From Bugula neritina (taxonomy: Eukaryota; Animalia; Bryozoa): DNA of 64,000 nucleotides. The position numbers and the translations under genes were made by a program. Position 1 is the first letter of the stretch. The number at the start of each line of letters is the position of its first letter. The notes under the pieces are model-generated. The model did not search any database. It saw only the letters and a list, made by a program, of their open reading frames with translations, and was not told the DNA's origin. This document shows positions 14,801-64,000 of this stretch, in pieces. Location: the NCBI GenBank assembly GCA_964035545.1, contig OZ037767.1, positions 3,798,707 to 3,862,706 of the forward strand, given 5' to 3'.

Positions 14801-15180
14801 CTAGGTGGAGAATTGGATTAAAATCATAACAGGTGCTTAGTATTGTTAGCTGTAGCAAAGAAGCATAGAAAATAATGTAAACTGCAGTTATCACAAGTCT
14901 GTCAAATGTGGCTTTAAAAATTGTCATCCAAAAGAGAATCATGTAAGCAGTAAGGGTATCCGAATAGCACCTCTGCTTCCTGCTGACTAAAATATGTATA
15001 TTCAACATCCAATAGAAACACAAGAAAGTTCTGCACCTGTTAAAATTGTAGTTTAACTATTTGGATATTTCTGAACTAGCCAATTTCAACATTTCACTGC
15101 TGGCTACGAAAATGTGACGTTTAAACATTATAGGAGAGGGTATGTAATTTTTGACTACAAGTCAACAGACATTTAATAAT

Positions 15181-24100: not shown

Positions 24101-24714
24101 CATCGATGAAAATTTTGTAACATTCAAGTATGCAAAAATGTAGACTTGACTGAAATTAGTAGGTATATATGGATAATATGCATGTTTACTTTCCGGAAAT
24201 CTGGTAAAGGCTGCCATTATCTAGATTTGGTATGGAGTCTAACATCCTAGATCTGAATAAAAGCTGACAAACGAGGTGCACTCTCGGCAATTCTTAACCA
24301 ATCACAGGTATACTGAAAACGCGGAAGTAAATCTGAAACAATCCAATTCAACACAAAACGAGGTTATATTACGAAATACCAACAATCCTATCGTGTAAGC
24401 TGTTACCTTAGTAAAATATGTGAACGGTAGACTTTTGAAACACCTGTAACTTGTGATTCTTTATTTGGTTGGGAAGGCGCACATAAATTGGAATAAGAGA
24501 ATTTCTTTCATCACTATTGGTTGTTGAAAAGCCATCTAATACATGACTGCTTTCTCCTGCAACTAATCAGAAGAGACGAAAAATAGTTATGTAGTAATTT
24601 TGTGCCCAAGCCACGTGACAGACTGCAGTACAGAGTGTCACACAGCCCCAATCATTCACCCAAACATATAACTGAATGATTGCCACCACCCGGCTGCTGA
24701 GACAATGCAGCCTC
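15181..24714 (-). repeat. Tandem array of ~1.38-kb units, each marked by a near-invariant ~116-nt structured element (8 copies)
   Basis: Elements at 15181-15296, 16672-16788, 18051-18167, 19425-19541, 20776-20886, 21817-21933, 23223-23339 and 24598-24714. Units between ~16.8 and 20.8 kb are recent near-identical duplicates; the other units are diverged except at short motifs. Confidence 0.92.
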
Positions 24715-25195
24715 TTACACACTCTTGCTTATTTGTCTAATGCATGTAAAGGATGCCCATATTTATAAATTTATAACATATCTACACAAACTATCTGCAC
24801 ACACAGCCATATTGGCTGCCTGACAAAACACGCCAGCTTAAACAGCCAGTAGTTATAGCTGAGCCCACAAGTTCTATTAAAGTTTAGCCAAAACAATAGC
24901 AGAGCTATGAACACTTATAAACAATATAGAACTAGGTATGAATGAACAGGTGAAAAGAACTATATCAACATGGAATTAATATCCAAGTGGTGCTACAATA
25001 TGACCAATAAGCCTTAACCAATACTACAGTGAAGAAATTTCAATATCAAAGAGTAAAATAATAAGATAAACCAAACACACAATTACAGACTATATAGTAC
25101 CAGAGTGAGCATTCGTTATAAAATTCAATTACAAAGCAATGGTTAATGTACAGATGTCGAATAATAGGAGGGAAGTAGACAGCTAGTTAGAAACA

Positions 25196-31948: not shown

Positions 31949-34900
31949 TTACATCAGCAATTCATCATCCATATTAGCTGCGGCCATATATGCATCTAAT
32001 TCATTGTCCAATGAAGACTTGTTAGCTGTATTAGCTCCGCCTCCTCTCCCACCACGTCGAGCGCCACGCCCCCTGCCTCTTACAGCACCTCTCCCACCTC
32101 TACCGGTACCTCTACCCCTACCACCACGCCTGTGTAACAATGAATGGCATTCATCATATAGATATGCACACATATATATACCTATAATATAACTTATTGA
32201 GTACAGTTGTGGACATGCTGCAAGTGGTGCACGGGTTTACCATACTTCACGAAAAACCCTGCAACAGTAGAAAATATTTACCACAGCCTAGTAGAATTCT
32301 ACAAAGCACAACCTCATTTTCTAGGAAACATAAAACCTGCTACATTCATAGGAAGCATGTGCTAGGTGTGAGAATGACATATTGATTTACCCCCTTGAGT
32401 TTTCAAATGTCATAGATTGTTGAAAGCCTTCTCTAGATCCGCCCCTGAATGCTCCTCGCCCGCGACTGACACCTCTTTGGGGCCCCATAGCTGCACCCCT
32501 TCTACCTGAATCAGGAAAATCATGCTGTCAACATTCAATTTCCTAAACTTAGATATAGTCTTAATGAATTTTAGAATTATCACTTACAACAGTTAAAGAT
32601 ATTTACAACAGGTGATAGCATAGTTAATGGGGTTATAAAATGAGAGAGATGTTGATAGCCTTTGCTAGCTAAAGCTGATATGGCGGGCAGTTGGTAGGAC
32701 CCCCTCTCTCTTCTGTCAGAGTGATAAGATACCGTACGCAGATATCGCCAGTAAATTCCTTCTTTAAAACATGACACCAACTAACAGTACGTGCATTTGT
32801 TGTGAAAAATCAACCAACCTCCACGTCCTCTCATAGACACGCCCCTTCCTCTTCTAGTCACTCCCCCTCGACCTCTTGGAATACCTAGTCTCTCTATAAA
32901 AGACACGGGACAAACAAATAGAGAGCTTGGTTATAAAATGTCAAAACATCTTAAGACACTTACTACTACAAGTTGAGGATTGATTGTAATACTAGCTATA
33001 TTATGTTAGATGCTATACTCACTATACTATGTTAGATGCTATACTAAGTTAGATGCTATAATAGGCTAGATGCTATACTACTTTAGATGCTATACTATGT
33101 TAGCTGCTATACTATGTTAGCTGCTATACTAGGTTAGCTACTCTACCTTTCACATCAGATACTGGTGAAGCCAGAGCGGCACCACCGCGAGGACCCCCTC
33201 GCCCTCCCCTGCCTCTGCCACGCAATGTCATGCGGGACCTGAGGGCAGGCCTCCTGCTTGCCGGGGCTCCCCTCCCTCTACCAGAGAAAGATGGCCGTCC
33301 GTCTCCAGCACCACCTCGGCCAGAGGGCTCTGACTTGACCTATTTAGTAGAAAGGAATTCATGTTACATAGTGATAGCCTGTGAGAATATAATTATTCAT
33401 TCTCTTACCTGACTTACTCTATTATGAACACAACTAAACAATGCATTGGTATTGCAAATGGAGTGTACGTATTTAAAATCTAAAATGTTGAAACATCTCC
33501 GAAGTTATCTTCTCGTAAACCATAGCAAACTTAAGCTATAGAACTTCAAGTATTACACAGAATATCACTTAGAAAAGGCAAGTCAATGTCATACCAACTT
33601 TACAAAGTGATATGACAGCGATGTAAGTTTACAGCTGGTAACATTCTACTTAAAATTAGCAGAATAACTTGGCAATTACTAAACACCAGGAAATAAGAAC
33701 CATTAGAAGAGGCGTATTTTACTACTTAGCATAGCATAGTCTATTTCAACAAGAATAATGACATTGTTTCTATAGTTGGTGAGATGTACATTTCTACAAG
33801 AGATTAGTTGATTCCAAGGTGAAGGTCTGAGCCATGGTGCTTTCTTCTGATGTAAAGACAACTCCAAATAATAATCATCTGAATAAATGTAAAGATAATG
33901 CTAGTTGATTAGCTACCAGAGAATGCCGGTTTCTAGCGAGTACAGATAATGACATAATAACCCGTACCTGGGAGGAATTTCCCAATGCTAGCTGCACACT
34001 CGGCCGGTTGGCCATCTGCGCTGCCAGTCTTCTGTTTTTTGCCGAGGCTTGCTGCTGAAGGATCCTCTGTTGCTGACTTTGCTTCTGGCGGGCATCTTGC
34101 TGGGCTGGTGTCGGTTTGGGCAGCTTCTGGAACCTGCGAGTCAAGGTCGTTTAACATGCACACCACGAAACTTAGAAAAGTGAATCCCTATTGGTCAGCT
34201 TACAACAAAACTTAAGATCTTATTGGTCAGCAAACTGCATTAGAGCTGCCAACCTGTTGGGGTGATTAAGGAATACACAGTCCTTATAAAAACACACACT
34301 TATTAGAGTTCATATTCCCATAAAGTTGTGTTTTAATATACATTATTTTTTACTTCAAATCAGCAAATAAATGCCAAGAGAGGCAGTTTTATCTGTATGA
34401 AGACGGTTTTGGAAAGGTGAGGATTTATTTCAGCCATAGAACTTGGCACAATGGTAGCCTCTGCCACACAAGTATTTGCAATAACACGACAGTATTACAG
34501 CAAACAGGGTGAATGGCTACACAATATGATATTCACCCAAAATTCTACACGCTAATAGTTTTGTACCAACTCTTGGTGGTGAAGTCAAATGAGGCCACTC
34601 ATTGGTGCTTGGTGAAAGAATTACAGGTTTTAACGCCAGTCAAATATAGGAGAAAATAACTCCTGCATCTATGATGTAAGCGTGTTTTGCTTGCAATAGA
34701 ACATGGCATACAGCATGTGACCATTTTACCAGAGTAACTGAACTGTATATGTATCAAGTCTTAGGTTCATATCCCAGACAGACCTGTAATGAGTCAGAGC
34801 TGACACCACACTGCAAGTGCTTGTGAGCTCTCAGAGATCAGATAGATGCAAGAGAAAGCAAACTTATAATTATTAGAGAATCGTGAAGCAGGTATGAACC

Positions 34901-37970: not shown

Positions 37971-40900
37971 TTACTCAATTTTAAAAACCCTCACAGTTCC
38001 GTCAGAGCTACACACTGCTAATATATCTCTCTTCACAGCAACACCAATCACATCAGAACATTCTTGAAGTTGCTCATGAGACAAGCGGGACACTATAATT
38101 CCTATTAAAAATATATTGTAGCATATAATTTATATAAATGACAAATCTATGTATTATTTACAGGACAAAGTTATAGATGTTACAATCTCATAATTGAAAA
38201 CCATTTACTATTTTGTTTTAAGAAACAAAATGATTAAACATATTATTTGGCGATTTTTAGCATAATAAAACTTTTCACCATTAAATAACTTCAACGCAGG
38301 TTTAAAAAAGTTTTTATCTTACACTGCTTGAAAATTATAAAAAATAATTCATCAGTATGATGTCTGGCAATTAATTTTTGCAACTAAATCATCACATGGT
38401 AATCTGTGTGAAGTAACTAAAGAGCTATCAGCATAATTAAAGATGTAGTCATTAACTTCAAAGGCTTGTAGTAAACCAGCTTTATTTTTATGCATATCAA
38501 TTGACATTTTCATGATGTATGCTATAATGAGATATGCTGAAAGTTGAATCAATCCAAATAAATTAAATACATACCACTTGAGTCTCTAGCTATGACTTGC
38601 TTGGGGTAACTGAGAATCTGGTAGTTGTATCCAAATGAGTCTTTAGATTTAGAGCAGCATAATATTTTGCAATCAACATTTTGTGTTGTCCTTTGAGCTA
38701 TTTTCTGGGTTACCCCTTTGGTAGATTTACCATTCATTTCAGAAAATCTTTCCTGCAACTGCACCCGTTGAAAAGTATTTTCCGTGCCAGGACTTGATTC
38801 AGCTTTTTTTAAAGCTGGATGATTTTTTTCATTTGTTGGATTGAAAAGTAGCTGGGCAGGTAAGGTGTGTGGCTGTGAAAAAAGATCTGGTCCGAAGTTA
38901 AAAGCCATCGGGTGACAAATATTGTCAGAAGTAGTGCTGTTGGCTATCAGCAGGGAAGACTCGTAACTTGACAAATCTGGTCTCCATACTTTTACAGCAA
39001 AAGAGTTTCCTTTCATATGAACTAAGTATTTGGCTGACAAGATTTCTGTTACTGGATACTTTGCAATGGTAGAACTACACAGGCTGTAAACATACAGCTG
39101 CTTTTGACCAGACACAAGAAAAGCGACATATGTTTCAAAAACTACAACTGAAGCATCGGCAATAGGATTTGAATCTATCTGCAGCAACTCTTGCTTTACC
39201 CGTAAGCTAACAGTTGAATGCAGGTACAGAAAAATCTTCTTTTCTACTCGCTGCAGGCTTACAAGCCCATCACAGGTTACCAGGGGTGCAATGTCAAGCA
39301 GATGACCAGTAGCCTTGTCTGTTCCCAAATGATTTAGCTTTGAGTCGTAAATATGCATTTGGTCATGCACAGTTGTAAGTACTAGGTTATCGTTGAAAGT
39401 CCACATCATAGATTTTATATCTTTAATCAACACTTTTTTCAGAACGAGCTCCAAGTTCTCTGGCTTGAATGGCTCTATGGCAAAATGTGGTGTATCTAGA
39501 AACAGATGAGTGTAATACATATAGGCTATTATATGCAATGACTCACATACTAATTGAAATTTATGACAGTTTAATGGATGTCAGAGTCAGAATTTCACAG
39601 AAATAGTTCACAATGGTTTGGAAAAAATCGTCTGATAGGTGAATTATCGTTATAGCAGTAAGTTATATTGCAAGAGTTATCGTAGCAATCCAAGTGGATA
39701 TAAAGATGATAAACAGTCATGATTTATCTGATAATCTTTCTAGTACCTTATTCACTTAAAACAATACCTAAGATTAACTGTTCAAAATACCTGAAATATC
39801 ATGGAAACATGTTTATAGCTGGTCAAGGCATGACTGGAAGATCGATACTACATCAGTATTACTTAGAAATGAATGCAAATTTTTAACTTTATAGCAAGAA
39901 TATAGAGATCTTGAATATTCAATGCTAGCGAAATCAATTCAAACTTGAGCTAACAACATTTTTTATTGCTGCCCAAATAAATAGTTACTAACATGAACGG
40001 CACTGTATGCTTGTATTTTCAAGCGCCATATATTTGATGTTTTTCTGTAGGGCTGCTTCTACATCTCCTTTTTGTTCATGCAGTGTTCTAATGATATCTG
40101 GAAGACTACTTTCCTCGCTACATTGAGTCAGAACTTGTTCCAAAGTCTTTAGATTCACCATTTGTGATTCTATCTTCAGTGAGTGGCTAGCAGCTTTCTC
40201 CGAGTGGTCAGTCACTTTGGCAATGAGTTGCTGCTTGAATTCCTCTGCCTTCGTAATCATCTTTTTGTACTTTAAACATACACCAGCAGATTTTCAACAA
40301 ATTGGCTGAAAGATTATTTGTTAAAAACAAAACATAGAAATGACAAAGTGACAAAAACCATATTGCCAAGTGAATTAGTTTTTCCGGATATCCTATAAGA
40401 TATAGCTTTAAAGCAGTCGGAAATCAAGATTGTGAAAGAATTATTTGTTTCTCTTTTGAAAATTAAAGAAAAATATGTAACAATAAGTTTTATTTCTTTC
40501 AAGCAAAAATGATCTTTTTAGTTCATTTATACAAACTATGCAAATATAAATTTTGCATTTAATTTTTTTATATGCATGCGCAGTCAATGTAAGTTGTAAA
40601 TCTAAAAACTAAATATTAATTTATACCTCCTTTTCTACAAAATCATCTACTTTGCCTGTCAGTTTTGTAATGTGTCGTTCATTTTCTTCTACCAATTGCC
40701 AAGCCTGTTTCTCACTTCTGCAAACTTCAGTTTGTTTTACAGCCAGCTCTGACAGTTGATTGTTGAGCATTTGTCTGCAGTGATTCTCAAAATTTTTGAG
40801 AGGAACTGTTTTGTGTGACTGAGAAAATCTCACTGCAAATATAACCAATGTGGCAACACCATTAATATATGTTTTAGATTAAAAATTGCAACATTAAGGC

Positions 40901-43900
40901 ATACGTTTTGCTATATTAGGGTTGTACATTGGGTGGTTAAGATAGTGTGCTTGCGTGTGTTTGTAATTTATCACTAGTCGATATATAATTTCTAACTTGA
41001 CTATAACAAATTGGTTTACTCTTTTATATAACAATGTTTTTCATCTCTTTAAATGATAGTCTTTTTTCCACATTAACACAATATTACGTGTTTCTAAAAA
41101 TGTGTGTGTCAAAATTGGCTTCAGAAAAAATTAAGAACACTAACCTGCATTTGTGCTTTGTTTGACCAGCTTTTTAGTTGATTCATAGGAAGGTTTATGA
41201 GAGTAACATGAAGATACATAGGGCTTCTTAGGTGTCATTTTAAAGTCTAAACTTTTGCCCAGATTATTGACAAGGAAGCCCACAGCACTATCTGATCTAA
41301 AACTACCTGTAGTTGAAATGGTCACATTATTTACAGCTTTTGAAGTGTTTTTAAGGTGTCATCCCAAATAGACGCTTCCCAGTTAGACGATAGGCTAAAT
41401 TTCCCTTTTCGACGTTTCCCAGTTAGACGTTATTTATTTATATTTAAATATATATGTATATCTAAATAAAGCACATATTGAGCACATAAATGAACCTTTT
41501 TGATCTGCATTAACTTATTAATTTTACATATATTTTGCTTCTTGTTTAAACAGATACTTTGTTAATGAGTATTGACTAATTCAAGATAATGTTTATTATT
41601 AATATATTACGTTTTTTGTCCCACACAAATTTATGAGAATTAAAACATTATTCCAGATAATTCATGTTGGCTATTATAGCTATTAGCATTTTAGCAATGA
41701 ATGCAACAGTTATATAGGTATATTACTATAAAATTATATGGCACCAAAATAGAAAATAGCGTCTAAACTGGGAATCGTTTAAGTGGGATGAAACCGTTTT
41801 TAAGACTGAAGACTTTTTTAAAAACAGATCTACGCATAGTTTTTCTCAGTGCTGCAAAGTATGCTATTTACTGCTGCTGAAAAGTTAAACTCACAGCTGC
41901 AATGTTATAATTGCTATTTTTATGAAGCTTAGCAACATTTTAGTTTGTTTTACCTGTTTCTTTGTCTTTTTCTCCAAAATTGAATTTGTTCCAATTTGAT
42001 TTGGGAAATAGCTGTGGATGTTTATTATAGTCTTCCATTCTCAATTCCTAAAAACATTATATGTGTATTTTGTTACAGTTTAAAAGGTCAAAACGTAGCA
42101 CAGAGCAAAGTAATTTTATTTACTATTAGTTGCTAAATATAACATTTCCTAAAAAAACACTGGTTTACGTCTTAGATTAAACTGAGGAAGTTGCTCACAT
42201 ATAACTATTCAATGCAGTAAATTAATTGAGTTAATATTTAAACAAATTAAACGAATAACTAGTAACATAAGTAAAGTTTAATATACTTTGAAAACACTAG
42301 TAGATTATCAGTCATTACCAAAAACTGCCTCGGTCTTAAACTAAGCTCACAATTTTAAATAATAATTCGTTGTGCAGTATTGTTTAAACTTTAAACTCTA
42401 CTATAGACTGTTTTTGATAATTCTATAACTCACTTCCAAACTATAGGCTCCATAACTTTTCATTCCAGTGATGCAGTAATGCTTTGTTTTCACTGTAGTA
42501 GCAAGGCCATTTTTCATCATATTATCTTGGCCATCTGTTGGAACAAAACTAGTTTTGTAAGTGTCTGGTGGTGCAGAGTCAGATGAAAACTGGGTGGCAC
42601 TGAGAGCTTGAAAACCTGTTTTAGATGTGGATAGCTCTGATCCCCAGTTATTAGTAACATAACTTGTTGATGGTTTTGCTGGTTCTGTAGTGGCTCCAAA
42701 GCTGAAACCAGTTGCTGGTTCTGTAGTGGCTCCAAAGCTAAAACCAGTTGTTGGTTCTGTAGTGGTTCCAAAGCTGAGGCCAGTTGTTGCTCTTGTAGTG
42801 GCTCCAAAATTGACACCAGTTGCTGGTTCTGTAGTGGTTCCAAAGCTAAAACCAGTTGCTGGTTCTGTAGTGGCTCCAAATCTGAGACCAGTTGCTGCTC
42901 TTGTAGTGGCTCCAAAGCTGAAACCAGTTGCTGGTTCTGTAGTGGCTCCAAATCTGAGGCCAGTTGCTGCTCTTGTAGTGGCTCCAAAGCTGACACCAGT
43001 TGTTGGTTCTGTAGTGGTTCCAAAGCTAAAACCAGTTGCTGGTTCTGTAGTGGCTCCAAAGCTGAGGTCAGTTGCTGCTCTTGTAGAGGCTCCAAAGTTG
43101 AAAACAGTTGCCGGTTCTGTAGCGGTTCCAAAGCTGAGGCCAGTTGTTGCTCTTGCAGTGGCTCCAAAACTGAAACCAGTTGCTGGTTCTGTAGTGGCTC
43201 CAAAGTTGAGGCCAGTTGTTGCTCTTGCAGTGGCTCCAAAGCTGAAACCAGTTGCTGCTCTTGTATTGGCTCCAAGGCTGAAACCGGTCTCTGCTTTTGT
43301 AGTGGTTCCAAGGCTGACACTAGTTGCTGCCCCTGTAATGGCTTCAAAGCTGAAAGGCCCTAATGGCTTACCAAATGGTTGACTTGCATTAACCACAGAT
43401 GAGCTGGAAGCACTTTTTGATCCAAAAATATTTGTAGCAGAAGTGGTTGAAATTTTTCCAGCTTCTGAAGATGTGGCTCCAAAAATAGAATTTGTTGTTA
43501 CTGGCTTACCAAATGTTTGACTTGCAGTAACCAGAGACGAGCTGAGAGAACTTTTTGATCCAATGATATTTGTAGTAGAATTGATTGTTTTTTTAGCTTC
43601 TTTGGTCAACAATGTATCATACAAGTTAGCTGTTGGGTTAAACAAGTTTTTGTCTAATAGCTTATTAGATGATTCAAAAGAATTTAATAAATCAGTTGGT
43701 TTTGCAACAAAAGGAATTTCGATTGAAGTGGAGCTGGACAATTTTTCAGCAAATTTATGTGGCACTAAATTAGAGTTTCCTGTATCTGCAGCTTTCTCCT
43801 GCAATAGAAATTGAGATATATGAATGAAATAGTGAAGCCTGCACCTTACTTTTAGCTGAATGTTCCGTTCATTAAAATGGGCCTTTTCAGACACCTACAG

Positions 43901-45988
43901 AGTTGAAAAATCTTGAAAAAATAATTATACTATTTTGTAGTAAAATCTTTATGCACAAACTTGTTTGATTACAAGGATACTTACTATACTTTCTGAAGAG
44001 TCTGGGTTGTTTGTCTCACATGCCAATTTAGTTGTGTTTTCTTTGTCTTCAGCAGATGTATCACCTTAACAATAGCAACATCACATAATTCGCATAGAAA
44101 AGGTACACAAATGGCATCTTAGATTATCATAAGCATGCGATACACTTTATTGATATGTACATTCCAATTCTCAACTTTTGTCTGCACAGTTTTGCTTCAA
44201 TCAATGTATAAACTATCAAGACTAAATTACCATGTATTACCATATTTCATGGGTTATTAAATATACAGCTGTGTTGAGATACTTGAGTAGATTAGACCAC
44301 AAGCTAAGCTCAATGTTACACTCTTAATATTGATTAAAGATTACTATTTGACCAAGAGTTGTATGTATGCCAAACTTTATACTATCAACTAAATTATGAT
44401 CTCATAGCTTTAATTGAAAGTATATAACTATCTTGGTAATAATGTTTAACTTTAACAAACTAGAGGAAGAATATAGCAAACTTGTTGTAAGCTTGATTTA
44501 GAACTAAATATATATGGAAAACATGGAGTTGCTGATAAACTATGTAAAAAAGAGCTGTTTCACTCTTTGGTATTCAGCTATCAACATTATGCTGCTTAGA
44601 ATTATCACCGACTCGCAACCGAAGCAAAATAATGCTAGAGCTTGTAGCATTATTGTAATATTCATACACATCGAGAGACACTTTCAACATTACAACTTTC
44701 TAAGCGTGGCAACTGCTGTCTTTTATTAGTAAAGCAAATGAGTGCTTTCTAAATACCGTTGTGCGAAAGGGTCATTCTCATGCATGCCTTTAGCATGTTT
44801 TGATGGGCATACAGGTAAGTAATGAGGAAAAAACCAATACCCGAAGTTTATTATTATCCTTACAAATAAATTGATTTAGGGTGCAAGTTGACCTAGGATG
44901 CAACTTCACCATGTAGGACACAGGCTTTTTTAATTTCTCCATTACTCCATCTAGTTTACAAAAAGTTACACGTACATGTGCATAACCCAGTAATTAGCAG
45001 AAAATATCCCACTCACTTTCAGACACCCATCTACCAGTGCAGATGGTGTTGAGGTCACAGGACTGGCAGAAGAGTCTGTAGCAGAACTCACACCCTCTGG
45101 TTACGTTTTCATCCTCATGTTCAAAGCATTTTATCTTTCTGTATTTGGCTTTAGATTGAGCATATTTCATTATGGAAATCTTATCATGCTCCAAATCAAA
45201 GACTCTGTCATGATTCTAGAAGAAATATTTCGAAGGATACATCATCCAAGCATAAATTTGTCAACTGAGAAAAAAGATTTAAAGCTTGCAAATAATAGAG
45301 ATAATGCATCAGCTCGAATTTGTCAAACTTTTCAATGTATGACGTATACACAAGCCAAACTCAAGGACAGAGGACAATTGATTTCCTTACCTCTTCATGA
45401 CTTTTACAGAAAGCTCTCTCGCAGTGTAAACAGAAACTATGTGCCAATTCAGCTGGTTCTGTCTTGCAAGAATCACAGTAAATGAGCTCGTGGTCAGGTT
45501 CAGATGGAGCATACTCCTTTTTTATTGGGTTCAACTCCAAGTAGGTGCATGTTTTTCTAAAAATTTTATAACATGTAAGAAATTTACTAAAGTATATATA
45601 CATATAATATACACACATATACACACATATGTGTGTATATGTGCGGTGAATGTATATAATTATAATGCTTAATAGTGCATCACTAAAAAGAGCTCAATGC
45701 AGGGCAGAGCACAGTGAAAAAAAATTTAGAGGATATGATAAAATTAGACTAAAACATTTTATCACTAGTAGCTTCATGTGTACATGTAATCATGCTGGAT
45801 ATGTATATAAGTGTAAATAGTTATACGAACTGGCAGACTATGCAGGTGATAGTTTCTCCGCTGTTACTCCCATGCATGCAGGGTAAACAGAATCTGTGAG
45901 AGCAGGGAAGCTGTCTTGGCTGGTCAACATCTATCAGCCTTTCCAAACAATATCCACATCTTTCATCTTCTGCTTTGCCCTTATCCAT
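37971..45988 (-). CDS. TRIM protein copy 1: RING, B-box1, B-box2, [FG repeats + Nup98-type GLEBS], coiled coil, beta-propeller-like domain
   Basis: Exons: 45988-45831 (C3HC4 RING CGYC..LPCSHRFCLPC..CIVC), 45556-45391 (B-box1), 45215-45017 (B-box2), 44064-43985, 43798-42434 (FG repeats and GLEBS N-half), 42047-41954 (ELRMEDY), 41306-41145, 40832-40627 and 40269-39993 (coiled coil), 39495-38575, 38101-37971 (LAVCSSDGTVRVFKIE*, WD40/NHL-like last blade). Phases are consistent throughout. Confidence 0.85.
41355..41795. mobile_element. MITE inserted in a TRIM copy 1 intron
   Basis: Imperfect ~35-bp TIRs (ggtgtcatcccaaatagacgcttcccagttagacg / cgtctaaactgggaatcgtttaagtgggatgaaacc), 8-bp TSD gtttttaa, and absent from the homologous intron of copy 3 (~60280). 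Confidence 0.8.
42670..43360 (-). repeat. Coding 36-bp tandem repeat (12-aa ATGFSFGATTEP/RA unit, ~19 copies)
   Basis: Seen in ORF 42401..43894; 16 of the 19 units retain FG. Confidence 0.95.
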
Positions 45989-46384
45989 AGTGCTACTAAA
46001 ATGTTGACTATTTAGATACAAATATCTTCTACTGCGTGTTGAATAAAATAAATTGACAGATTCTATTGGTCAACAAAATCTTCCCTCTCTACGCTTTTCT
46101 ACAAATATGTATTGCTCATATATATACTGCCATAAAAGAATATCATGCTTTTGTAAGTTTCACTAACATATATAAGTAATATAACTTACATTTTCTGTAA
46201 TCTTAAGGCAGACTCAGATTGCCTTACCAGGCCCAACAAAAGGCAGAACTCTATTCACCTCTCTGTCTAAAATACTCTGTGTGGGTGCTTGTAGTGTGCG
46301 GCTCACTGAATTCTCATTGTTTGCTTTAGTCAATGCAATTTTGAATATTATACTGCAGTCAATGAAGGGGCTTTTTGCAAGCTT

Positions 46385-46394
46385 GGGACTTTCC
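46385..46394. promoter_or_regulatory. Canonical NF-kB site upstream of TRIM copy 1
   Basis: GGGACTTTCC, with a weaker GGGGCTTTTT ~18 bp away, just upstream of the likely non-coding first exon (donors near 46189/46227). Confidence 0.6.
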
Positions 46395-47654
46395 CCTTTT
46401 CAGCTATATGTGTGATCAATCTAATCAGAGCTACAATCTATATTCTGGACTCAAAGGTCTTTGGCTATTGAAATCAAAAACAATCTAATGCATATTAGTT
46501 TAGAACAATGCCTGTCTCTAATAACTAATTAGATCAATTCCAACCAATGGCCACTACTGCACTTCCACATAGCAACTTATAATGCTTTTTGCAGTTAACA
46601 TAAATCAACTACAATTAAAAAGTGTTCAAATATGAAGACTGTTTGTATAAAATCTCCACTCCTGGGATAGCCTCTGAGGGCTATAGAGAGAGTTTTTCAA
46701 ACCAAACTGCAGGCGATGGATTGTGCATGTTTTAACACAGCCCCAATTAGGATCTGTTGCTTTTTCTACTTTCCCTACTCCACCTGGCCCTACTAGAAAC
46801 AATGACTTAGTATATGCTAGCTAGGCCATTGCTCCAAGTCTAACCACAGTAGATCATACAGCTTCTCCCTAAATACTTTTTTTACTGTTTTTAAATTGCC
46901 TTTTTATATAATGTGAATGGTAATCACATGGTTTATGAAGGGTGGGGGGGGGGGGGGGAGGCAACTACAAACAACTAAATCTAATCATCATCAACTACTG
47001 TCCCTGCTCCAACTGCATATATTGAATTCATCTCACTTGGTTTAGAACACAAATTGTCTTGCTGAAAACGTTGCTATGTGCATAATGCCTTTATATTATA
47101 AAATTATTTCAGTTTTCAGTTATAAAAATTAAATATCTTTAGCAAACACAGTTCCGACTTTGTTTCCCATTTTTATTCATGCCTACTTATTATAGCCAGT
47201 ATTTACACTGAATTTCGCAACGTGTTTTTATGTCTGTGAAATGTAATAAATCAATCATTCAATCAAATAAAAATCAATTGCTAGAATATTGTAGTTACTA
47301 GCCCCTAATATTGACAATAAAATATTAGGCAAAAAATAGAGCTGCTTTTATTCATCAATATATACCTGGGATTTTGTAAGTTAATTTCTAAGGTGTACTT
47401 CATATATATTATTATTGCTTACATCTGAAAAATTCGCTGCGGCTGATATAAATTTAAGTCGTTTTACTTATTAAAACTCAATTTATACACAGAAAGCTGG
47501 TTGGTTTACTATAAAAAAAAGTTATATCACACAGACATGCAAACGGGTACATAAAATTATTGCCATAAATTCAAACACTTTTCTACTTGTATACATACGT
47601 ATAAAAAATCATCACAAACAGGAATTATAATAAATAAACTATAATAAGCATCAG

Positions 47655-54890
<7,236 letters not shown>

Positions 54891-55286
54891 GGTGCTATTA
54901 AAAAGTTCATTATTGATATACAAATATCTTATACTGCGTGTTGAATTAAATAAATTGACAGATTCTATTGGTCAACAAAATCTTCCCTCTCTTCGCTTTT
55001 CTACAAATATGTATTGCTCATATATATACTGCCATAAAAGAATATCATGCTTTTGTAAGTTTCACTAACATATATAAGTAATATAACTTACATTTTCTGT
55101 AATCTTAAGGCAGACTCAGATTGCCTTACCAGGCCCAACAAAAGGCAGAACTCTATTCACCTCTCTGTCTAAAATACTCTGTGTGGGTGCTTGTAGTGTG
55201 CGGCTCACTGAATTCTCATTGTTTGCTTTAGTCAATGCAATTTTGAATATTATACTGCAGTCAATGAAGGGGCTTTTTGCAAGCTT

Positions 55287-55296
55287 GGGACTTTCC
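55287..55296. promoter_or_regulatory. Canonical NF-kB site upstream of TRIM copy 2
   Basis: GGGACTTTCC in a promoter block nearly identical to that of copy 1. Confidence 0.6.
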
Positions 55297-56563
55297 CCTT
55301 TTCAGCTATATGTGTGATCAATCTAATCAGAGCTACAATCTATATTCTGGACTCAAAGGTCTTTGGCTATTGAAATCAAAAACAATCTAATGCATATTAG
55401 TTTAGAACAATGCCTGTCTCTAATAACTAATTAGATCAATTCCAACCAATGGCCACTACTGCACTTCCACATAGCAACTTATAATGCTTTTTGCAGTTAA
55501 CATAAATCAACTACAATTAGAAAGTATTCAAATATGAAGACTGTTTGTATAAAATCTCCACCCCTGGGATAGCCTCTGAGGGCTATAGAGAGAGTTTTTC
55601 AAACCAAACTGCAGGCGATGGATTGTGCATGTTTTAACAGAGTACCAATTAGTATCTGTTGCTTTTCCTACTTTCCCTACTCTACCTGGCCCTACTAAAA
55701 ACAATTACTTAGTATATGCTAGCTAGGCCATTGCTCCAAGTCTAACCACAGTAGATCATACAGCTTCTCCCTAAATATAACGGTTTAGGAAATTATCTGA
55801 ATTTTCATACAATACTTTTTTTACTGTTTTTAAATTGCCTTTTCATATAATGTGAATGCTAACCACATGGTTTATGAAGGGTGGGAGGACAACTACAAAC
55901 AACTAAATCTTATCATCATCTACTGTCTCTGCTCCAACTGCATATATTGAATTCATCTCACTTGGTTTAGAACACAAATTGTCTTGCTGAAAACGTTGCT
56001 ATGTGCATAATGCCTTTATATTATAAAATTATTTCAGTTTTCAATTACAAAAATTAAATATCTTTAGCAAACACAGTTCCGACTTTGTTTCCCATTTTTA
56101 TTCATGCCTACTTATTATAGCTAGTATTTACACTGAATTTCGCAACGTGCTTTTATGTCTGTGAAATGTAATAAATCAATCATTCAATCAAATAAAAATC
56201 AATTGCTAAAATGTTGTAGTTACTAGCCCCTAATATTGACAATAAAATATTAGAGCTGCTTTCAGTCATCAATACCTGGAATTTTGTAAGTTAATTTCTA
56301 AGGTGTACTTCATATATATTATTATTGATTACATCTGAAAAATTCACTGCGTCTGATATAAATTTAAGTCGTTTTACTTATTAAAACTCAATTTATACAC
56401 AGAAAGCTGGTTAGTTTACTATAAAAAAAGTTATAACACACAGACATGCAAACGGGTAAATAAAATTATTGCCATAAATTCAAACACCTTTCTACTTGTA
56501 TACATACGTATAAAAAATCATTACAAACAGGAATTATAGTAAATAAAGCTATATAAGCATCAG

Positions 56564-59500
56564 TTACTCAATTTTAAAAACCCTCACAGTTCCGTCAGAG
56601 CTGCACACTGCTAATATATCTCTCTTTACAGCAACACCAATCACATCAGAACATTCTTGAAGTTGCTCATGAGACAAACGGGACACTAGGGTTCCTATTA
56701 AAAATATATTGTAGCATATAATTTATATAAATGACAAATCTATGTATTATTTACAGGACAAAGTTATAGATGTTACGATCTCATAATTGAAAACCGTTTA
56801 CTATTTTTGTTTTAAGAAACAAAATGATTAAACATATTGTTTGGCGTTTTTTAGCATAATAAAACTTTTCACCATTAAATTACTTCAACGCAGGTTTAAA
56901 AAAGTTTTTATCTTACACTGCTTGAAAATTATTAAAAAAAGTAATTCATCAGTATGATGTCTGGCAATTAATTTTTGCAACTAAGTCATCACATGGTAAT
57001 CTGTGTGAAGTAACTAAGGAGCTATCAGCATAATTAAAGATGTAGTCATCAACTTCAAAGCCTTGTAGTAAACCAGCTTTATTTTTATGCATATCAATTG
57101 ACATTTTCATGATGTATGCTATAATGAGATATGCTGGAAGTTGAATCAATCCAAATAAATTAAATACATACCACTTGAGTCTCTAACTACGACTTGCTTG
57201 GAGTAGCTGAAAATCTGGTAAATGTATCCAAATGAGTCTTTAGATTTAGAGCAGCATGATATTTTGCAATCAACTTTTGTTGTTGTCCTTTGAGCTATTT
57301 CCTGGGTTACCCCTTTTGCAGATTCACCATTCACTTCAAGATATTTTTGTAGTAACTGCAATGATTGAAAAGTATTTTCCCTGCCATGACTTGATTCATT
57401 TCTTTTCAAAGCTTTTTCATTCGTTGGATCGAAACGTAGCTGTGCAGACGAGCTGTCTGACTGTATTGAAAAAGGATCTGGTCCAAAGTTAAAAGCCATC
57501 GTGTGACAAATATTGTCAGAAGTAGTGCTATTGGCTATCAGCAGGAAAGACTCGTAACTTGACAAATCTGGCTTCCAAACTTTTACAGCAAAAGAGTTTC
57601 CTTTCATATGAAGCAAGAATTTAGCCGACAAGACTTCTGCTACTGGATACTTTGCAATGGTGGAACTACACAGGCTGTAAACATACAACTGCTTTTGACC
57701 AGACACAAGAAAAGCGACATATGTTTCAAAAACCACCACTGAAGCATCGGCAATAGGATCTGACTCTATCTGCAGCAACTCCTGCTTTACCTGTAAACTA
57801 ACAGTTGAATGCAGATATAGGAAAATCTTATTTTCTACTCGCTGCAGGCTTACAAGCCCATCACGAGTGACCAGGGGTGCAATGTCAAGAAGATGGCCAG
57901 TGGCCTTGTCTGTTCCCAAGTGATTCAACTGTGAGTCCATGATATGTATTTTGTCATGTACAGTCGTGAGTACTAGATTATCGTTGAAAGTCCACATCAT
58001 AGATTTTATATCTTTAATCAACACTTTTTTTAGAACGAGCTCCAAGTTCTCTGGCTTGAATGGCTTTATGGCAAAATGTGGTGTATCTAGAAACAGATGA
58101 GTGTAACATATAGGCTATTATATGCAATGACTCACATACTAATTGAAATTGTAAAACAGTTTAATGGATGTCAGAGTCAGAATATCACAGGTCGAAATAG
58201 TTCAGAATGGTTTGGAAAAAATATATCAGTCTGATAGGTGAATTATCGTTATAGCACTAAGTTATATTGCAAGAGTTATCGTAGCAATCCAAGTGGATAT
58301 AAAAATGATAAACAGTCATGATTTATCTGATAATCTTTCTAGTACATTATCCACCTAAAACAATACCTAGGATTAACTGTTCAAAATACCAGAAATATTA
58401 TGGAAACATGTTTATAGCTGGTCAAGGCATGACTGGAAAATCGATACTACATCAGTATTACTTAGAAATGGTTGCAAATTTTTAACTTTATAGCAAGAAT
58501 ATAGAGATCTTGAATATTCAATGCTATTATAACGAAGTCATTTCAAACTTGAGCTAACAACATTTTTTAATGTCCAAATAAATTGTTACTAACATGCGTG
58601 ACATTGTATGCTTGTACTTTCCAGCTCCATACACTTAATATTTTTCTGTAGGGCTGCTTCAACATCTCCTTTTTGTTCATGCAGTGTTCTAATGATATCT
58701 GGAAGACTACTTTCCTCGCTACATTGAGTCAGAACTTGTTCCAAAGTCTTTAGATTCACCATTTGTGATTCTATCTTTAGCGTGTGGTTAGCAGCTTTCT
58801 CCGAGTGATCAACCACTTTGGCAATGAGTTGTTGCTTGAACTCCTCTGCTTTCATAGTCATCTTTTTGTACTTTAAACATACATCATTAAACTTTCAACA
58901 AATTTGCCAAAGGATTATTTACGAAAACATAAAATTTAAAAATAATAGGTTGCAAAAACCAAACTGCAATAGCTTGAAAGCCCTCTAAAATCAACATTGT
59001 GATTAAAAAATTATTTACGTCATTTTGAAAAAATCTATTATTGAACTTTTCATCCTTTTGTGACAAAATGGTATCTTTAGTTCATTTATAAAAATTAAGC
59101 AAAAATAAATTTTGCATTTGGTTTTTACATGTGTAGCTTATGTGACCTGCGTTGTAAGTCTAAAACTAAAAGCCAGCTACCTCCTTTTCTACGAAATCAT
59201 CTACTTTGCCTGTCAGTTTTGTAATGTGTCGTTCATTTTCTTCTACCAATTGCCAAGCCTGCTTCTCACTTCTGCAAACTTCAGTTTGTTTTATAGCCAG
59301 CTCTGACACTTGATTGCTGAGCATTTGTCTGCAGTGACTTTCAAAATCTTTAAGAGGAACTGTTTTGTGGGACTGAGGAAATATCTCTGCAAATATCCAT
59401 GTGGCAACACCTTTAATATATGACTTAAATTAGAAGTTGTATTGTTGGCATACTTATTGCTATATTTGGGCTGTGGATTGGGCGGTTAAGACAGTTAGCC

Positions 59501-62500
59501 ATAGTTAAAAAGAACTTAATAGTAATCATAGAAGGTACATTAATTTTGGTTTAGGAAGGAGTGTAAACTCAAGCAAGATGAGCTCAAGCTTTGCAACTGG
59601 CATAGCCTTAAGGCTTGAATCTACATATGCCTTTTAAATTTATATTAATGGAAAAATGGTTCTTTTTTCATGTACAGGTATGTGAGGATTTTACAGTCTT
59701 TTGTTTTTCGCTAGTGGAATAAGGGCGGAACCTGCAATAACAGCTGTTTACAAATTGCAACTTTTGAATTTTCATCATTTATTGTTACTCTGAAGATGAG
59801 AACAGCAGTGCCAAAAATATTAGTCAATTACTTTGTTTAATAAAGTAATAAAACTAAAATGTTACTCGTATACTTATCCATAAAAAAAATATATATATAT
59901 ATGTATGTATATATTTCTAAATTAAGAATAACAAATTGGTTCGCCCTCCAACAAAATTTTATTTGTTTCCTTCAATGATAACTTTTCTCTTACTTTTACA
60001 CAATAGTGTTTTTTTTCCAGAAATTTTTTGTCAAACTTGGTTTTAGAGAGAATTTAGAACACTAACCTGCACCTGCGTTTTGGTTGACCATCTTATTAGG
60101 TGATTCATAGGAAGGTTTATGAGAGTAACATGAAGATACATAAGGCTTCTTAGGTTTCCCTCTGAAGCCCAAACCTTTGCCAGGACGATCTAATTGGCCT
60201 GGATTATTGGCGAGGAAGCCCATAGCATTATCTGTTCTAGAAATACCTGTAACCAAGCTGGTGACATTATTTACAGCTTTTGAAGTAATTTTATAACTAA
60301 AAATTTTTCGAAAATACAGATTGATGCATAATTTTTCTCAGTGCTGTAAATTTACCTACTGTTGCTGAAAAGTTGAAGTAACACCTGCAATGCTATAATT
60401 GCTGTTTTCATGAAGCTTAGCAATATTTATCGTTCTAAAATTATTAAAATTTCTTTTACCTGCATCTTTGTTTTTCTCTCCAAAATTAAACTTGTTCCAA
60501 TTTGATTTGGGAAATAGCAGTGAATGTTTATTATAGTCTTCCATTCTTAATTCCTAAAAGTATCATTTGCAGATTGTTTACAGTTCAAAAGGTTAAAAGG
60601 TAGCTCAGACCGAAGTAATATTTGCTAGTATTTCCATAAAAAACATTTGCTTTCTAAGGAAGTTACTTACATGCAACTATACTGCAAGTGTTGAAAATAC
60701 AATGAATGAATAATTATGGCATTGCGTTTTTATTAAAAAACATCACAACTCTAAGTCAATAAGTTTTCTCACAGTTTAACTTGCTTTTCGTACCCCAGTG
60801 CCTGGTGGTGCAGAGTCAGATAAAAACTGGCTGGTACTGAGAGCTTGAAAACCTGTTTTAGATGTGGATAGCGCTGATCCCCAGCTATTAGTAACATAAC
60901 TTGTTGATGGTTTTGCTGGTTCTGTAGTGGCTCCAAAGCTGAAACCAGTTGCTGGTTCTGTAGTGGCTCCAAAGCTGAGGCCAGTTGCTGCTCTTGTAGA
61001 GGCTCCAAAGTTGAAAACAGTTGCCGGTTCTGTAGCGGTTCCAAAGCTGAGGCCAGTTGTTGCTCTTGCAGTGGCTCCAAAGATGGAAGTTGTTGTTACT
61101 GGCTTACCAAATGGTTGACTTGCAGTAACCACAGACAAGCCGAAAGCACTTTTTGGTCCAAAGATATTTGTAGTGGAATTGGTTGAAGTTTTTACAGTTT
61201 CTGAAGGTGTGGCTCCAAAGATGGAAGTTGTTGTTACTGGCTTACCAAATGGTTGACTTGCAGTAACCACAGACGAGCCAAAAGCACTTTTTGATCCAAA
61301 GATATTTGTAGTGGAATTGGTTGAAGAATCAGATAAAGTAGTGGATTTTGCAATGAAAGGAACTTCAATTAAAGTGGAGCTGGACAATTTTTCAGCAGAT
61401 TTATATGGCACTAAATTAAAATTTACTGGATCTTCAATTCTGTCCTGCCATAAAAATTAAGATATATGCATAAAATAGCAAAACTTGCACCTTACTTTTA
61501 GCTGAATGTTCATGAAAATGGGTTTTTTCAGAAACTTACAAAGTTTAAAAACCTTGAAAAAATAGTTACTATTTTGTAGTAAAATCTTTATGCATAAACT
61601 TGTTTGATTAAAAAGATACTTACTATACTTTCTGAAGAGTCTGGGTTGTTTGTCTCGCATGCCAATTTAATTTTGTTTTCTTTGTTTTCAGCAGATGTAT
61701 CACCTTGACAACAGCAATATCATAAATTATATGTAGAAAAAGGTACACAAATGACATATTAGATTATCATTAGCGCAATGCACTTTAATGATATGTACAT
61801 TTCAATTTTTAAGTTTTGTCTGTACAACACTTGCACAGTTAAACTTCAATCTTGGAATTAATAAACACACACTTGCATTATAAATTTACAACTATTAAGA
61901 CTAGATTACCTGATATTTATTAAAGATTACTGTTTGATAAGGAGTTATGTGATAAAGATTTATTTGATACTTAGGAGTCATTTTACTTCATTTAGTACAC
62001 ATCAGCAAATTATGACCTAAGATTAAAGTTTGCTCAAAATTCATTGAAATTTACTATATTGTGTGGTATTTTTATGTGCTGGTTCTAATTATGCATAACA
62101 AAAAAAGCTGGGAGGGGCTTCCCCAACATTAAAGCACCGTCATTGTCATATGCACTTAATATATAAGTGCGATTGTCATGAAAAAACCGCGATGGTCTAC
62201 AAATATCTAAATTAGCTAAATAATTAGGAAAAACATGAGAAATTAGGCAAAATTAAAATTAAAATTGATTATATAGTTGTATTTATTGATATCAATAATA
62301 TGCTATTAGTTTTGGGTAAAAACCCATATAAATTAGCAGCTAAATTGGGAAAAATACCAAAGACTGGAGATTTCGAGTGTGTACTAAATTAAGTAAAATA
62401 ATCGTATGCCAAACCTTTTACTACCAACTATATTATGATTTATCTTACATAGCAGCTTTATTTGAAAGTGCATAACTATCTTGGTAATAATGTTCAGCTC

Positions 62501-64000
62501 CAATAAACTACAGGAAGAATATAATGTATACTTAAAATATAAACAGATACGGAAACCATGGAGCTGCTGATCAATTACACAGAAAAAAAGGCTGTTTTGC
62601 TCTTTGGTGTTCAGCTATTAACAGTATGTAGCTTGGATTTATCATCTATGACTTAAGCTAGAGTGTACCAAACTTGAAAGAACGCTATTATAGTATGCAC
62701 TGACCTTTTTTGTAACATTCCTACACATTGAGAAACTCTTTAAACATTACAATTTTCTAAGCATGGCAACTGCTATTTCTTCATTAGTAAAGCAAATGAG
62801 TGGCTCGGCAAACATGATAGTGCAAGAGGGTTATTTCTATGCATGCCCATAGCATGTTTTTCTAGGCATACAGGTAAGTAATGAGGAAAAAATCAATAGG
62901 CGAAGCTGTTTATTATTTTTACGAATAAATTGATTTGGGGTGCAAGTTGACCTAGGATTCAACCTCACCATGTAGGACACAGGCTTTTTCAATTTCTCCA
63001 TTACTGCATCTACTTTAACAAAAAGTTACACATTGTGCATGTGCATAACCCAGTAATTAGTAGGAAATATCCCACTCACTTTCAGGTACCCATCTACCAG
63101 TACAGATGGTGTTGAGGTCACAGTACTGGCAGAAGAGTCTGTAGCAGAACTCACACCCTCTGGTTACGTTTTCATTCTCATGTTCAAAGCATTTGATCTT
63201 TCTGTATTTGGCTTTAGATTGAGCATATTTCATTATGGAAATCTTATCATGCTCCAAATCAAAGACTCTGTCATGATTCTAGAAGAAATATTTCGAAGGA
63301 TACATCATCCAAGCATAAATTTGTCAATTGAGAAAAAAGATTTAAAGCTTGCAAATAATAGAGATAAGGCATCAGCTCGAATTTGTCAAACTTTTCAATG
63401 TATGACGTATACACAAGCCAAACTCAAGAACAGAGGACAATTGATTTCCTTACCTCTTCATGACTTTTACAGAAAGCTCTCTCGCAGTGTAAACAGAAAC
63501 TATGTGCCAATTCAGCTGGTTCTGTCTTGCAAGAATCACAGTAAATGAGCTCGTGGTCAGGTTCAGATGGAGCATACTCCTTTTTTATTGGGTTCAACTC
63601 CAAGTAGGTGCATGTTTTTCTAAAAATTTTATAACACGTAAGAAATTTACTAAAGTATATATACATATAATATACACACATATACACACATATGTGTGTA
63701 TATGTGCGGTGAATGTATATAATTATAATGCTTAATAGTGCATCACTAAAAAGAGCTCAATGCAGGGCAGAGCACAGTGAAAAAAAATTTAGAGGATATG
63801 ATAAAATTAGACTAAAACATTTTATCACTAGTAGCTTCATGTGTACATGTAATCATGCTGGATATGTATATAAGTGTAAATAGTTATACGAACTGGCAAA
63901 CAGTGCAGGTGATAGTTTCTCCGCTGTTACTCCCATGCATGCAGGGTAAACAGAATCTGTGAGAGCAAGGAAGCTGTCTTGGCTGGTCAACATCTATCAG
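56564..64000 (-). CDS. TRIM protein copy 3 (5' end beyond the right edge; short FG region, GLEBS N-half deleted)
   Basis: Exons >64000-63894 (RING, partial), 63619-63454, 63278-63080, 61703-61624, 61444-60794 (donor GGG|GTACGA is inferred), 60553-60460 (ELRMEDY), 60246-60067, 59386-59181, 58870-58594, 58086-57172 and 56694-56564. Confidence 0.8.
61980..62399. mobile_element. MITE-like insertion in a TRIM copy 3 intron
   Basis: ~21-bp TIRs (attttacttcatttagtacac / gtgtactaaattaagtaaaat); absent from the homologous introns of copies 1 and 2. TSD not clear. Confidence 0.65.

Follow-up and report, generated by a model that had tools for sequence, protein, structure and literature searches.

GLEBS is a short nuclear-pore motif, the nucleoporin docking site that holds the mRNA-export factor Rae1, and Rae1 is attacked by several virus families. 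A 64,000-nucleotide stretch of contig OZ037767.1 of the bryozoan Bugula neritina (the window) raises the question how such a motif came to lie in a TRIM-type gene and what it may do there. The original prediction proposed three tandem genes of RING/B-box/B-box/coiled-coil/propeller layout, each with an FG-type region, and the capture of an FG-repeat plus GLEBS module from Nup98.

The window contains three tandem paralogues on the minus strand (Table 1), each combining a RING with two B-box-like exons, a middle rich in Ser and Thr, a coiled-coil region and a C-terminal exon rich in beta structure. The copy 1 model is an open frame with GT-AG sites at 10 of 10 introns. Its RING passes the profile cut-off of 21 bits, as does that of copy 2, and copy 1 is predicted to encode a ubiquitin ligase. 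The B-boxes remain below their Pfam cut-offs (exon 3 reaches 17.3 bits with PF00643, cut-off 24.1). Exon 2 fits what we take to be the B-box type 1 ligand pattern; the presumed B-box 2 pattern is unmatched within exon 3, and the final B-box 2 histidine sits after the cassette described below, apart from the other ligands, which counts against our preferred reading. A crude heptad scan for the coiled coil was positive only in windows starting at residues 758-779. Purifying selection acts on the ligase core (dN/dS 0.13-0.51; coiled-coil region 0.22-0.26). The middle region gives 0.6-1.0 among the copies, where repeat number is about 19, 5 and 5; dN/dS was clearly above 1 in none of the regions compared. 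The frameshift in the last exon of copy 2 is of 2 nt.

The propeller label of the C-terminal region is tentative. Two fold models of its exon are of low confidence (pLDDT 33.6 and 34.0); the leading fold matches are propellers, yet the best of them (Z 7.8, rmsd 2.9 over 78 residues) lies inside the background range, and searches of Pfam, including NHL and WD40, and of PDB sequences gave no match. Tandem paralogy and the RING of the predicted layout are borne out; the B-boxes stay below the Pfam cut-offs and the C-terminal exon is without a Pfam match. In the profile check RING and GLEBS pass.

Table 1. Features of the three TRIM-like genes, in positions of the window
Feature	Position	Strand	Remarks
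Copy 1, TRIM-like gene	38352..45988	-	11 exons, 1,264-aa model, intact GLEBS
Copy 1 exon 1, C3HC4 RING	45831..45988	-	PF00097 26.8 bits; run X7 has the joint 45556-45831
Copy 1 exon 2, B-box type 1-like	45391..45556	-	falls short of the PF22586 cut-off (E 0.001)
Copy 1 exon 3, first seven B-box type 2 ligand positions	45035..45215	-	ends at phase-1 intron
Phase 1-1 cassette, frame-neutral	41145..44064	-	linker, Ser/Thr region, FxFG array, GLEBS, spacer
Copy 1 optional exon, 45 nt	43850..43894	-
36-bp tandem array, 18.9 units	42676..43355	-	encodes 12-aa (F/L/V)xFG repeats
GLEBS part one (equivalent of human Nup98 164-201)	42434..42547	-	ends at phase-0 donor
Intron, 386 nt	42048..42433	-	splits E201 and E202 equivalents
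Exon opening with ELRMEDY (GLEBS 202-208 equivalent)	41954..42047	-	ELRMEDY at 42027-42047
Inverted-repeat (MITE-like) high-copy insertion	41355..41795	.	30-nt arms; depth in thousands
Exon pair with the region of the final B-box 2 histidine and the coiled-coil region	39993..40832	-	heptad scan; X7 joints
Beta-rich, propeller-like C-terminal region	38352..39495	-	two exons, 38-nt intron
Copy 2	48022..54890	-	GLEBS absent; no FG in the repeats; last exon frameshifted
Copy 3	56949..64000	-	RING start beyond window; GLEBS 164-201 deleted; ELRMEDY exon retained
Copy 3 ELRMEDY exon	60460..60553	-

The copy 1 segment scores as a Nup98 GLEBS. It exceeds the PF21240 gathering cut-off of 27 bits in copy 1 only, with 42.9 bits on the exon part alone and 46.4 bits, and the best seven matches among PDB sequences are all Nup98; taken by itself, the ELRMEDY exon matches nothing in PDB significantly. 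E201 and E202, which form salt bridges to Rae1 (PMC3783196), are retained across the splice junction, together with C188, M192, R204, D207 and Y208. In passing the cut-off and in E201/E202 the motif resembles the GLEBS of Nup98/Nup116 (PF21240; PDB 3MMY, 4OWR). Unlike these, it has three atypical residues that are almost never seen among GLEBS hits (S194 in 0 of 58, G196 in 0 of 58, Y198 in 1 of 58), and it lies in a RING/B-box/coiled-coil gene; Pfam showed no S59 autopeptidase or Nup96 domain in two scans of 14 and 11 frames. The spliced motif reaches 84.3 bits with a profile built from 33 members, which themselves score 57-108 bits leave-one-out. It outscores only four of them, which, like the three substitutions, counts against our preferred reading; the substitutions would allow that the motif is decaying. 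Likeness to Nup98 ends at the motif edges (3 of 20 residues upstream, no NRKG-type tail downstream) and, being confined to the motif, fits selection on it.

Where did the motif come from? Its closest counterpart is a Nup98-like exon, P0006, with 34 of 38 identical residues (next best 25 of 38) and several shared rare states, T167, N172, A179, Y187 and G191 among them. The two group in the tree with support 98/83, and all change since their common ancestor falls on the TRIM branch (0.11 versus 0 for P0006), a point against our preferred reading. P0006 is presumably the Nup98 of the host lineage. The intron break point is, as deduced, the same in 20 of 61 GLEBS hits, and apparently shared with GLEBS exons of other animals; a literature search found no published exon boundary for human NUP98. 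Because the motif has lineage-specific residues and its intron lies where many GLEBS exons end, it was likely captured at the DNA level, intron included, from the host lineage's own Nup98, and not by retrotransposition. The predicted GLEBS capture by a TRIM-type gene is thereby supported, on stronger grounds than the original prediction could offer. Residue sharing with P0006 could be mimicked by gene conversion from Nup98.

For the FG array such a capture is not supported. It is a recent 36-bp FxFG expansion and not of Nup98 type. Nup98 FG domains have GLFG-type motifs, a very low charge (median 2.5%) and about 6-10 FG per 100 residues according to the available text of PMC4283134. The copy 1 array is FxFG-type, has no GLFG and about 10% charged residues (D/E 5.2%, K/R 4.7%), with 8.3 FG per 100 residues within the array and 4.8 across the whole region. 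Against eight Nup98 N-termini the region scored 30.4 bits (maximum of 60 shuffles 28.5), a marginal value which we do not take as homology, since the sequence is periodic and shows no FG alignment to Lingula Nup98. Absence of GLFG, higher charge, recent expansion and the failed Lingula alignment leave a Nup98 origin of the array unsupported, so that of the predicted module the GLEBS part is supported and the FG part is not. The Ser/Thr-rich middle recurs in each copy as foreseen, but the copy 2 tandem repeats are FSLG/FSLE units containing no FG (23 FG in the copy 1 model versus 5 in the whole copy 2 model).

Array and GLEBS lie in a cassette inside B-box 2 whose 1,701 nt make 567 codons, a number divisible by 3, and skipping it leaves an open frame of 697 aa. 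In TRIM/RBCC proteins the coiled coil comes straight after the B-box (PMC6468550). With the cassette included 567 residues stand between the two, and only in the hypothetical skip form do they adjoin. The cassette appears to behave like an optional, fast-changing targeting module. An MITE-like insertion occurs in copy 1 only, within the intron that follows the ELRMEDY exon, and is absent from copy 3; that it breaks an exon was rejected, since an acceptor compatible with the frame is present downstream. In copy 3 the ELRMEDY exon persists, the 41 residues before ELRMEDY are gone, GLEBS 164-201 is deleted, an in-frame donor is new, and what remains reaches 0.4 bits with the local GLEBS profile. 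From copy 2 the entire motif is missing through an in-frame deletion that joins repeats to the spacer exon. That two of three copies are without the full motif counts against our preferred reading. Both losses keep the frame.

Taken together, we consider it an even call that the three genes form a young tandem family of TRIM-type ligases, that their ancestor took up the host Nup98 GLEBS with its intron into the B-box 2 cassette, and that copy 1 binds Rae1. As we picture it, a genomic piece of host Nup98 would have been copied into the frame-neutral cassette, and the copy 1 motif, predicted to bind Rae1, would hold the ligase at the machinery of mRNA export. The FxFG array may add weak binding to transport receptors, and the RING could then ubiquitinate Rae1 or Rae1-bound partners. 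Alternatively, the protein might compete with Nup98 for Rae1 and dampen mRNA export; free GLEBS displaces RAE1 and blocks mRNA export (PMC2133102).

Do the motif exons enter ligase mRNA at all? It is very unlikely that the gene is an artefact of modelling or assembly and that Nup98-like exons lie within a TRIM intron. The cassette could be skipped in frame, and in run X7, which is probably RNA (none of the listed runs is on record as such), no single contig holds RING, GLEBS and coiled coil, a result that counts against capture with Rae1 docking; nor is a GLEBS splice joint among the joints listed. Against an artefact stand the open frame of 567 codons bounded by GT-AG sites, a matching layout in copy 3, contigs of runs X3 and X4 that span GLEBS, intron and next exon, and X7 joints from exon 4 into the FG exon and from the last cassette exon into the coiled-coil exon. 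The X7 joints include 45556-45831, 40269-40627 and 40832-41145. The X7 contigs, one of which (contig 28) ends at 42433, are about 90-92% identical to these genes and therefore derive from paralogues or another strain; they probably represent spliced family transcripts with the last cassette exon. Several expected exon junctions are thus seen in probable RNA, a single transcript from RING to GLEBS is not. Hardly more credible is an ancient animal TRIM-GLEBS family in place of independent capture. In its favour is P0033, a divergent GLEBS that also has Y198, but the lineage-specific residues match P0006 and not lamprey, brachiopod or mollusc Nup98, and homologues of the C-terminal domain are found only in Bugula and JGI records. 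Word-indexed searches for longer relatives found none with the C-terminal exon or the GLEBS region, which is weak evidence; a viral sequence scan found no relative, and the one locus from a metagenome scan (L001), a bacterial kinase-like gene, was rejected as a chance match.

Once captured, the motif might be a tolerated passenger, a chance Nup98 fragment decaying in a disordered, skippable cassette. Two independent losses, three unusual substitutions, near-neutral cassette dN/dS and a skip form that restores a compact TRIM speak for it. We think this improbable: 34 of 38 residues and ELRxEDY are preserved between immediate flanks that can no longer be recognised on either side, X3, X4 and X7 contigs also carry the motif region, and both deletions preserve the frame. 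An antiviral integrated decoy, with Rae1 as bait by proxy and the FG array as capsid bait leading to ubiquitination of viral export blockers or capsids, would also be unlikely. The TRIM effector domains joined to host-derived bait recall engineered Trim-NUP153C, whose FG bait restricts HIV-1 (available text of PMC3795039), and the TRIMs that have naturally become joined to RanBP2-derived and CypA domains (PMC3137616); tandem duplication and the fast-changing middle agree with such a role. However, no dN/dS clearly above 1 was obtained, copy 2 repeats lost FG, two of three copies dropped GLEBS, and the bait is internal where in TRIMCyp and Trim-NUP153C it is C-terminal. In the ORF10 structure, moreover, the viral protein makes its contacts with Rae1 and scarcely any with Nup98, and therefore GLEBS could be bait only by proxy, via bound Rae1. 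Doubtful to the same degree is a convergent class of nuclear-pore decoys among animal immune ligases, in which TRIM ligases captured Nup98 GLEBS repeatedly, bryozoans independently, with Rae1 and FG as bait for viral blockers of mRNA export and for capsids crossing the pore, which would be ubiquitinated.

Capture of GLEBS, our preferred reading, has relatives among known systems. Zebrafish ftr52 (RBCC-RanBD-CypA) likewise joins a TRIM to nucleoporin-derived (RanBP2-like) multi-exon DNA; there, as far as the available text of PMC3137616 goes, the donor is RanBP2, the C-terminal domain is replaced and a premature stop occurs, whereas in copy 1 the donor would be Nup98 and the insert lies inside the gene, which retains its C-terminal domain. 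TRIMCyp, in the same source, arose by retrotransposition with the bait replacing the C-terminal domain; copy 1 retains an intron. Human TRIM34 is another TRIM that associates with RAE1, and it reduces the expression of host genes (PMC13189347), though the interaction may be indirect and GLEBS appears in the available part of that paper only in a reference title; for copy 1, Rae1 docking is a prediction. Plant NLRs with integrated domains (PMC5819176, in part) likewise capture host domains at the DNA level in a duplicating family, on another scaffold and in another kingdom; an immune role of the bryozoan genes is putative. A literature search, with subscription journals mostly outside its range and supplements not included, found no paper on a TRIM-GLEBS protein, so the claimed novelty of TRIM-FG-GLEBS holds to that extent, but TRIM-nucleoporin fusion as such has precedent in ftr52 and Trim-NUP153C.

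GLEBS, a docking site of nucleoporins, is here a mobile exon module on a predicted ubiquitin ligase. If a convergent second origin were true, it would mean repeated selection to aim ligases at Rae1; should Rae1 binding fail, the locus would still be a tidy case of exon shuffling and decay at the DNA level. With the motif complete in one paralogue, partial in another and missing from the third, the family forms a natural experiment, with the intron and two losses within 26 kb.

The stretch, animal DNA, is rich in A and T and its introns are short; comparison with itself reveals three tandem paralogues on the minus strand. They bear out the three tandem RING/B-box genes of the original prediction. 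The RING lies above the Pfam cut-off in copies 1 and 2; both B-boxes are recognisable at scores under the cut-off. For the proposed propeller there is a poor predicted fold of the C-terminal exon (pLDDT 34, beta-rich), whose top structural matches are propellers, with Z values no higher than 7.8 and so at background level. No match to this exon was found in Pfam or among PDB sequences; one of its five homologues is a hypothetical protein of Bugula neritina (identity 85% over 53% of the query), and the other four are JGI records. Spliced as modelled, copy 1 is an open frame of 1,264 aa with GT-AG at 10 of 10 introns, copy 3 is open throughout its portion inside the window and copy 2 up to a 2-nt frameshift in the last exon. 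Pairwise dN/dS, by simple counting on three sequences, lies at 0.13-0.51 in RING/B-box, 0.22-0.26 in the coiled coil and 0.35-0.48 in the C-terminus, against 0.63-1.04 in the middle region.

Features of the TRIM array and its surroundings (window positions)
Feature	Position	Strand	Remark
Related units	15100-24750		about seven, ~1.4 kb each, 82-97% alike in parts, without long open frame
CHTOP/Friend-of-PRMT1-like gene	31950-34200	minus	PF13865, 38.6 bits
Copy 1	38352-45988	minus	
Last intron	38537-38574	minus	38 nt, required by the model in 3/3 copies; unspliced frame hits a stop inside it
Introns matched by X7	40269-40627, 40832-41145, 45556-45831	minus	
Cassette, copy 1	41145..44064	minus	exons 4 to 8
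MITE-like element	41355-41795		high-copy, copy 1 only, 30-nt inverted arms, apparent 8-bp target duplication
GLEBS, copy 1	42434-42547 + 42027-42047	minus	
X7 contig	42705-42433		listed part of a 645-nt contig
Optional exon	43850-43894	minus	45 nt, phase 0; copy 3 lost the acceptor; an X7 joint skips it
Copy 2	48022-54890	minus	
Copy 2 intron 3	52621-52916		oppositely oriented 15-bp repeat arrays, possibly a small transposon
Copy 2 duplication	54167-54709		piece of intron 1 + exon 2; creates another possible acceptor
Copy 3	56949-64000	minus	to window end

The Nup98-type GLEBS, the Rae1-docking motif, claimed for copy 1 is confirmed: with a PF21240 cut-off of 27 bits, its exon part reaches 42.9, and seven of its eight PDB matches are Nup98. 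By the PDB Nup98 alignment the GLEBS intron sits between the equivalents of E201 and E202, described as making Rae1 salt bridges (PMC3783196); Nup98 181-224 is described as sufficient for RAE1 binding (PMC2133102). Of the positions that are invariant in 58 ungapped cores the motif retains nearly all, its oddities being S194 and G196 (each 0/58) and Y198 (1/58). The spliced 45-mer reaches 84.3 bits, above 4 of the 33 members of a profile (leave-one-out 57.0-107.8 bits, median 98.7), all picked by likeness to the query and five with one identical core. The 69-residue exon end, used as query for a full HMMER scan, had 61 matches, of which 41 are below 300 aa, many of them single-exon fragments, and which are therefore not a census of architectures. 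Pfam found GLEBS in 29 and neither RING nor B-box in any of the 31 matches examined, and a RING pattern hit 0 of the 61. Five animal Nup98-like proteins (P0007, P0008, P0010, P0018, P0023) carry two or three GLEBS each without S59 or Nup96 domain, suggesting that GLEBS exons duplicate readily.

The top match, P0006, is a 59-aa exon-like frame with a Nup98-like lead-in; it is identical to the copy 1 core at 34 of 38 positions (runner-up 25/38) and has rare residue states in common with it. Both fall into a five-member clade with support 98/83, the bootstrap not being settled (tree of 59 rows and 38 columns; 3 of the 61 matches excluded as non-alignable), with branch lengths of 0.11 for the TRIM motif and 0 for P0006. 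We infer that P0006 represents Nup98 of the host lineage. Between an ancient animal TRIM-GLEBS family and a fresh capture, the data favour the latter. The divergent GLEBS of P0033, in a clade with the TRIM motif and also showing the K198Y change, is possibly another captured copy. Past E201, 18 of the 61 matches continue into valine and two into Ala-Ser before similarity is gone, which is what reading through a GT or GC donor would produce. Of the remainder, 29 carry on without a break, one fits neither group and the pattern failed to catch 11. Animal Nup98 thus probably had this intron site ancestrally, and the break deduced at it in 20 of the 61 argues for capture of genomic DNA rather than mRNA.

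An FG-type region had been predicted in each gene, as part of a Nup98-like FG and GLEBS module. A 36-bp tandem repeat amounts to 18.9, 5.1 and 4.7 units in copies 1, 2 and 3; copy 1 has 23 FG, 10 FxFG and no GLFG at a nucleoporin-like density inside the array (8.3 per 100), and the units of copy 2 are without FG. Charged residues make up ~10% of the copy 1 array, in contrast to a median of 2.5% reported for Nup98 FG domains (PMC4283134), and against Lingula Nup98 the GLEBS alone aligns significantly. Only the GLEBS half of the module thus stands, the array being best read as a local expansion. Its FxFG spacing may be Nup153- or Nsp1-like.

Linker, Ser/Thr region, FxFG array, GLEBS and spacer form a cassette with phase 1 at start and end (567, 278 and 335 codons in copies 1, 2 and 3), and its in silico removal from copy 1 leaves an open 697-aa RING/B-box/B-box/coiled-coil/C-terminal frame. 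It splits B-box 2 after ligand position seven, setting this apart from the histidine preceding the coiled coil. The ligand spacing exceeds the usual one; a reference title gives the ligand order as CHC(D/C)C2H2. None of eight sequencing runs is on record as RNA, and the RNA status of X7, one of four compared (X1, X3, X4, X7), is a guess. X7 joints match three modelled introns exactly, joints found in none of X1, X3 and X4, and fit the predicted exon junctions to that extent; another X7 joint connects exon 4 with the FG exon, a loose end at exon 3 matches exon 2, and a contig (~92% identity), in its listed part, runs from TRIM-specific flank through GLEBS to end at the donor. Contigs of X3 and X4 cross GLEBS, intron and next exon, which argues against an assembly artefact. 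No single record among those listed for the four runs holds RING, GLEBS and coiled coil.

In copy 2 an in-frame deletion removed the entire motif, and copy 3 lacks 41 residues, GLEBS 164-201 among them, and splices from a new donor that is in frame. Decay of the captured GLEBS is a serious alternative to function. In copy 1 similarity to Nup98 stops at both motif edges, a pattern not easily accounted for unless the motif was under selection, if only for some time. An antiviral decoy role, as a speculative reading, has precedents: engineered Trim-NUP153C (PMC3795039), zebrafish ftr52 and TRIMCyp (PMC3137616), TRIM34-RAE1 (PMC13189347) and plant integrated domains (PMC5819176). Such a decoy would need Rae1 as true bait, because ORF10 is described as contacting Rae1 and hardly Nup98 (PMC7604486).

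Literature searches, at the level of listings, returned no TRIM-GLEBS paper; copy 1 is a real case of TRIM domain capture. The CHTOP-like gene adjoins the array just downstream; CHTOP has a role in mRNA export, and the neighbourhood may be chance. Most likely, the cassette-including protein would bind Rae1 via GLEBS, and the FxFG array would perhaps bind transport receptors. In human cells free GLEBS is described as drawing Rae1 off Nup98 (PMC2133102). The RING ligase would thereby be placed at the export machinery, or Rae1 would be drawn away from Nup98.
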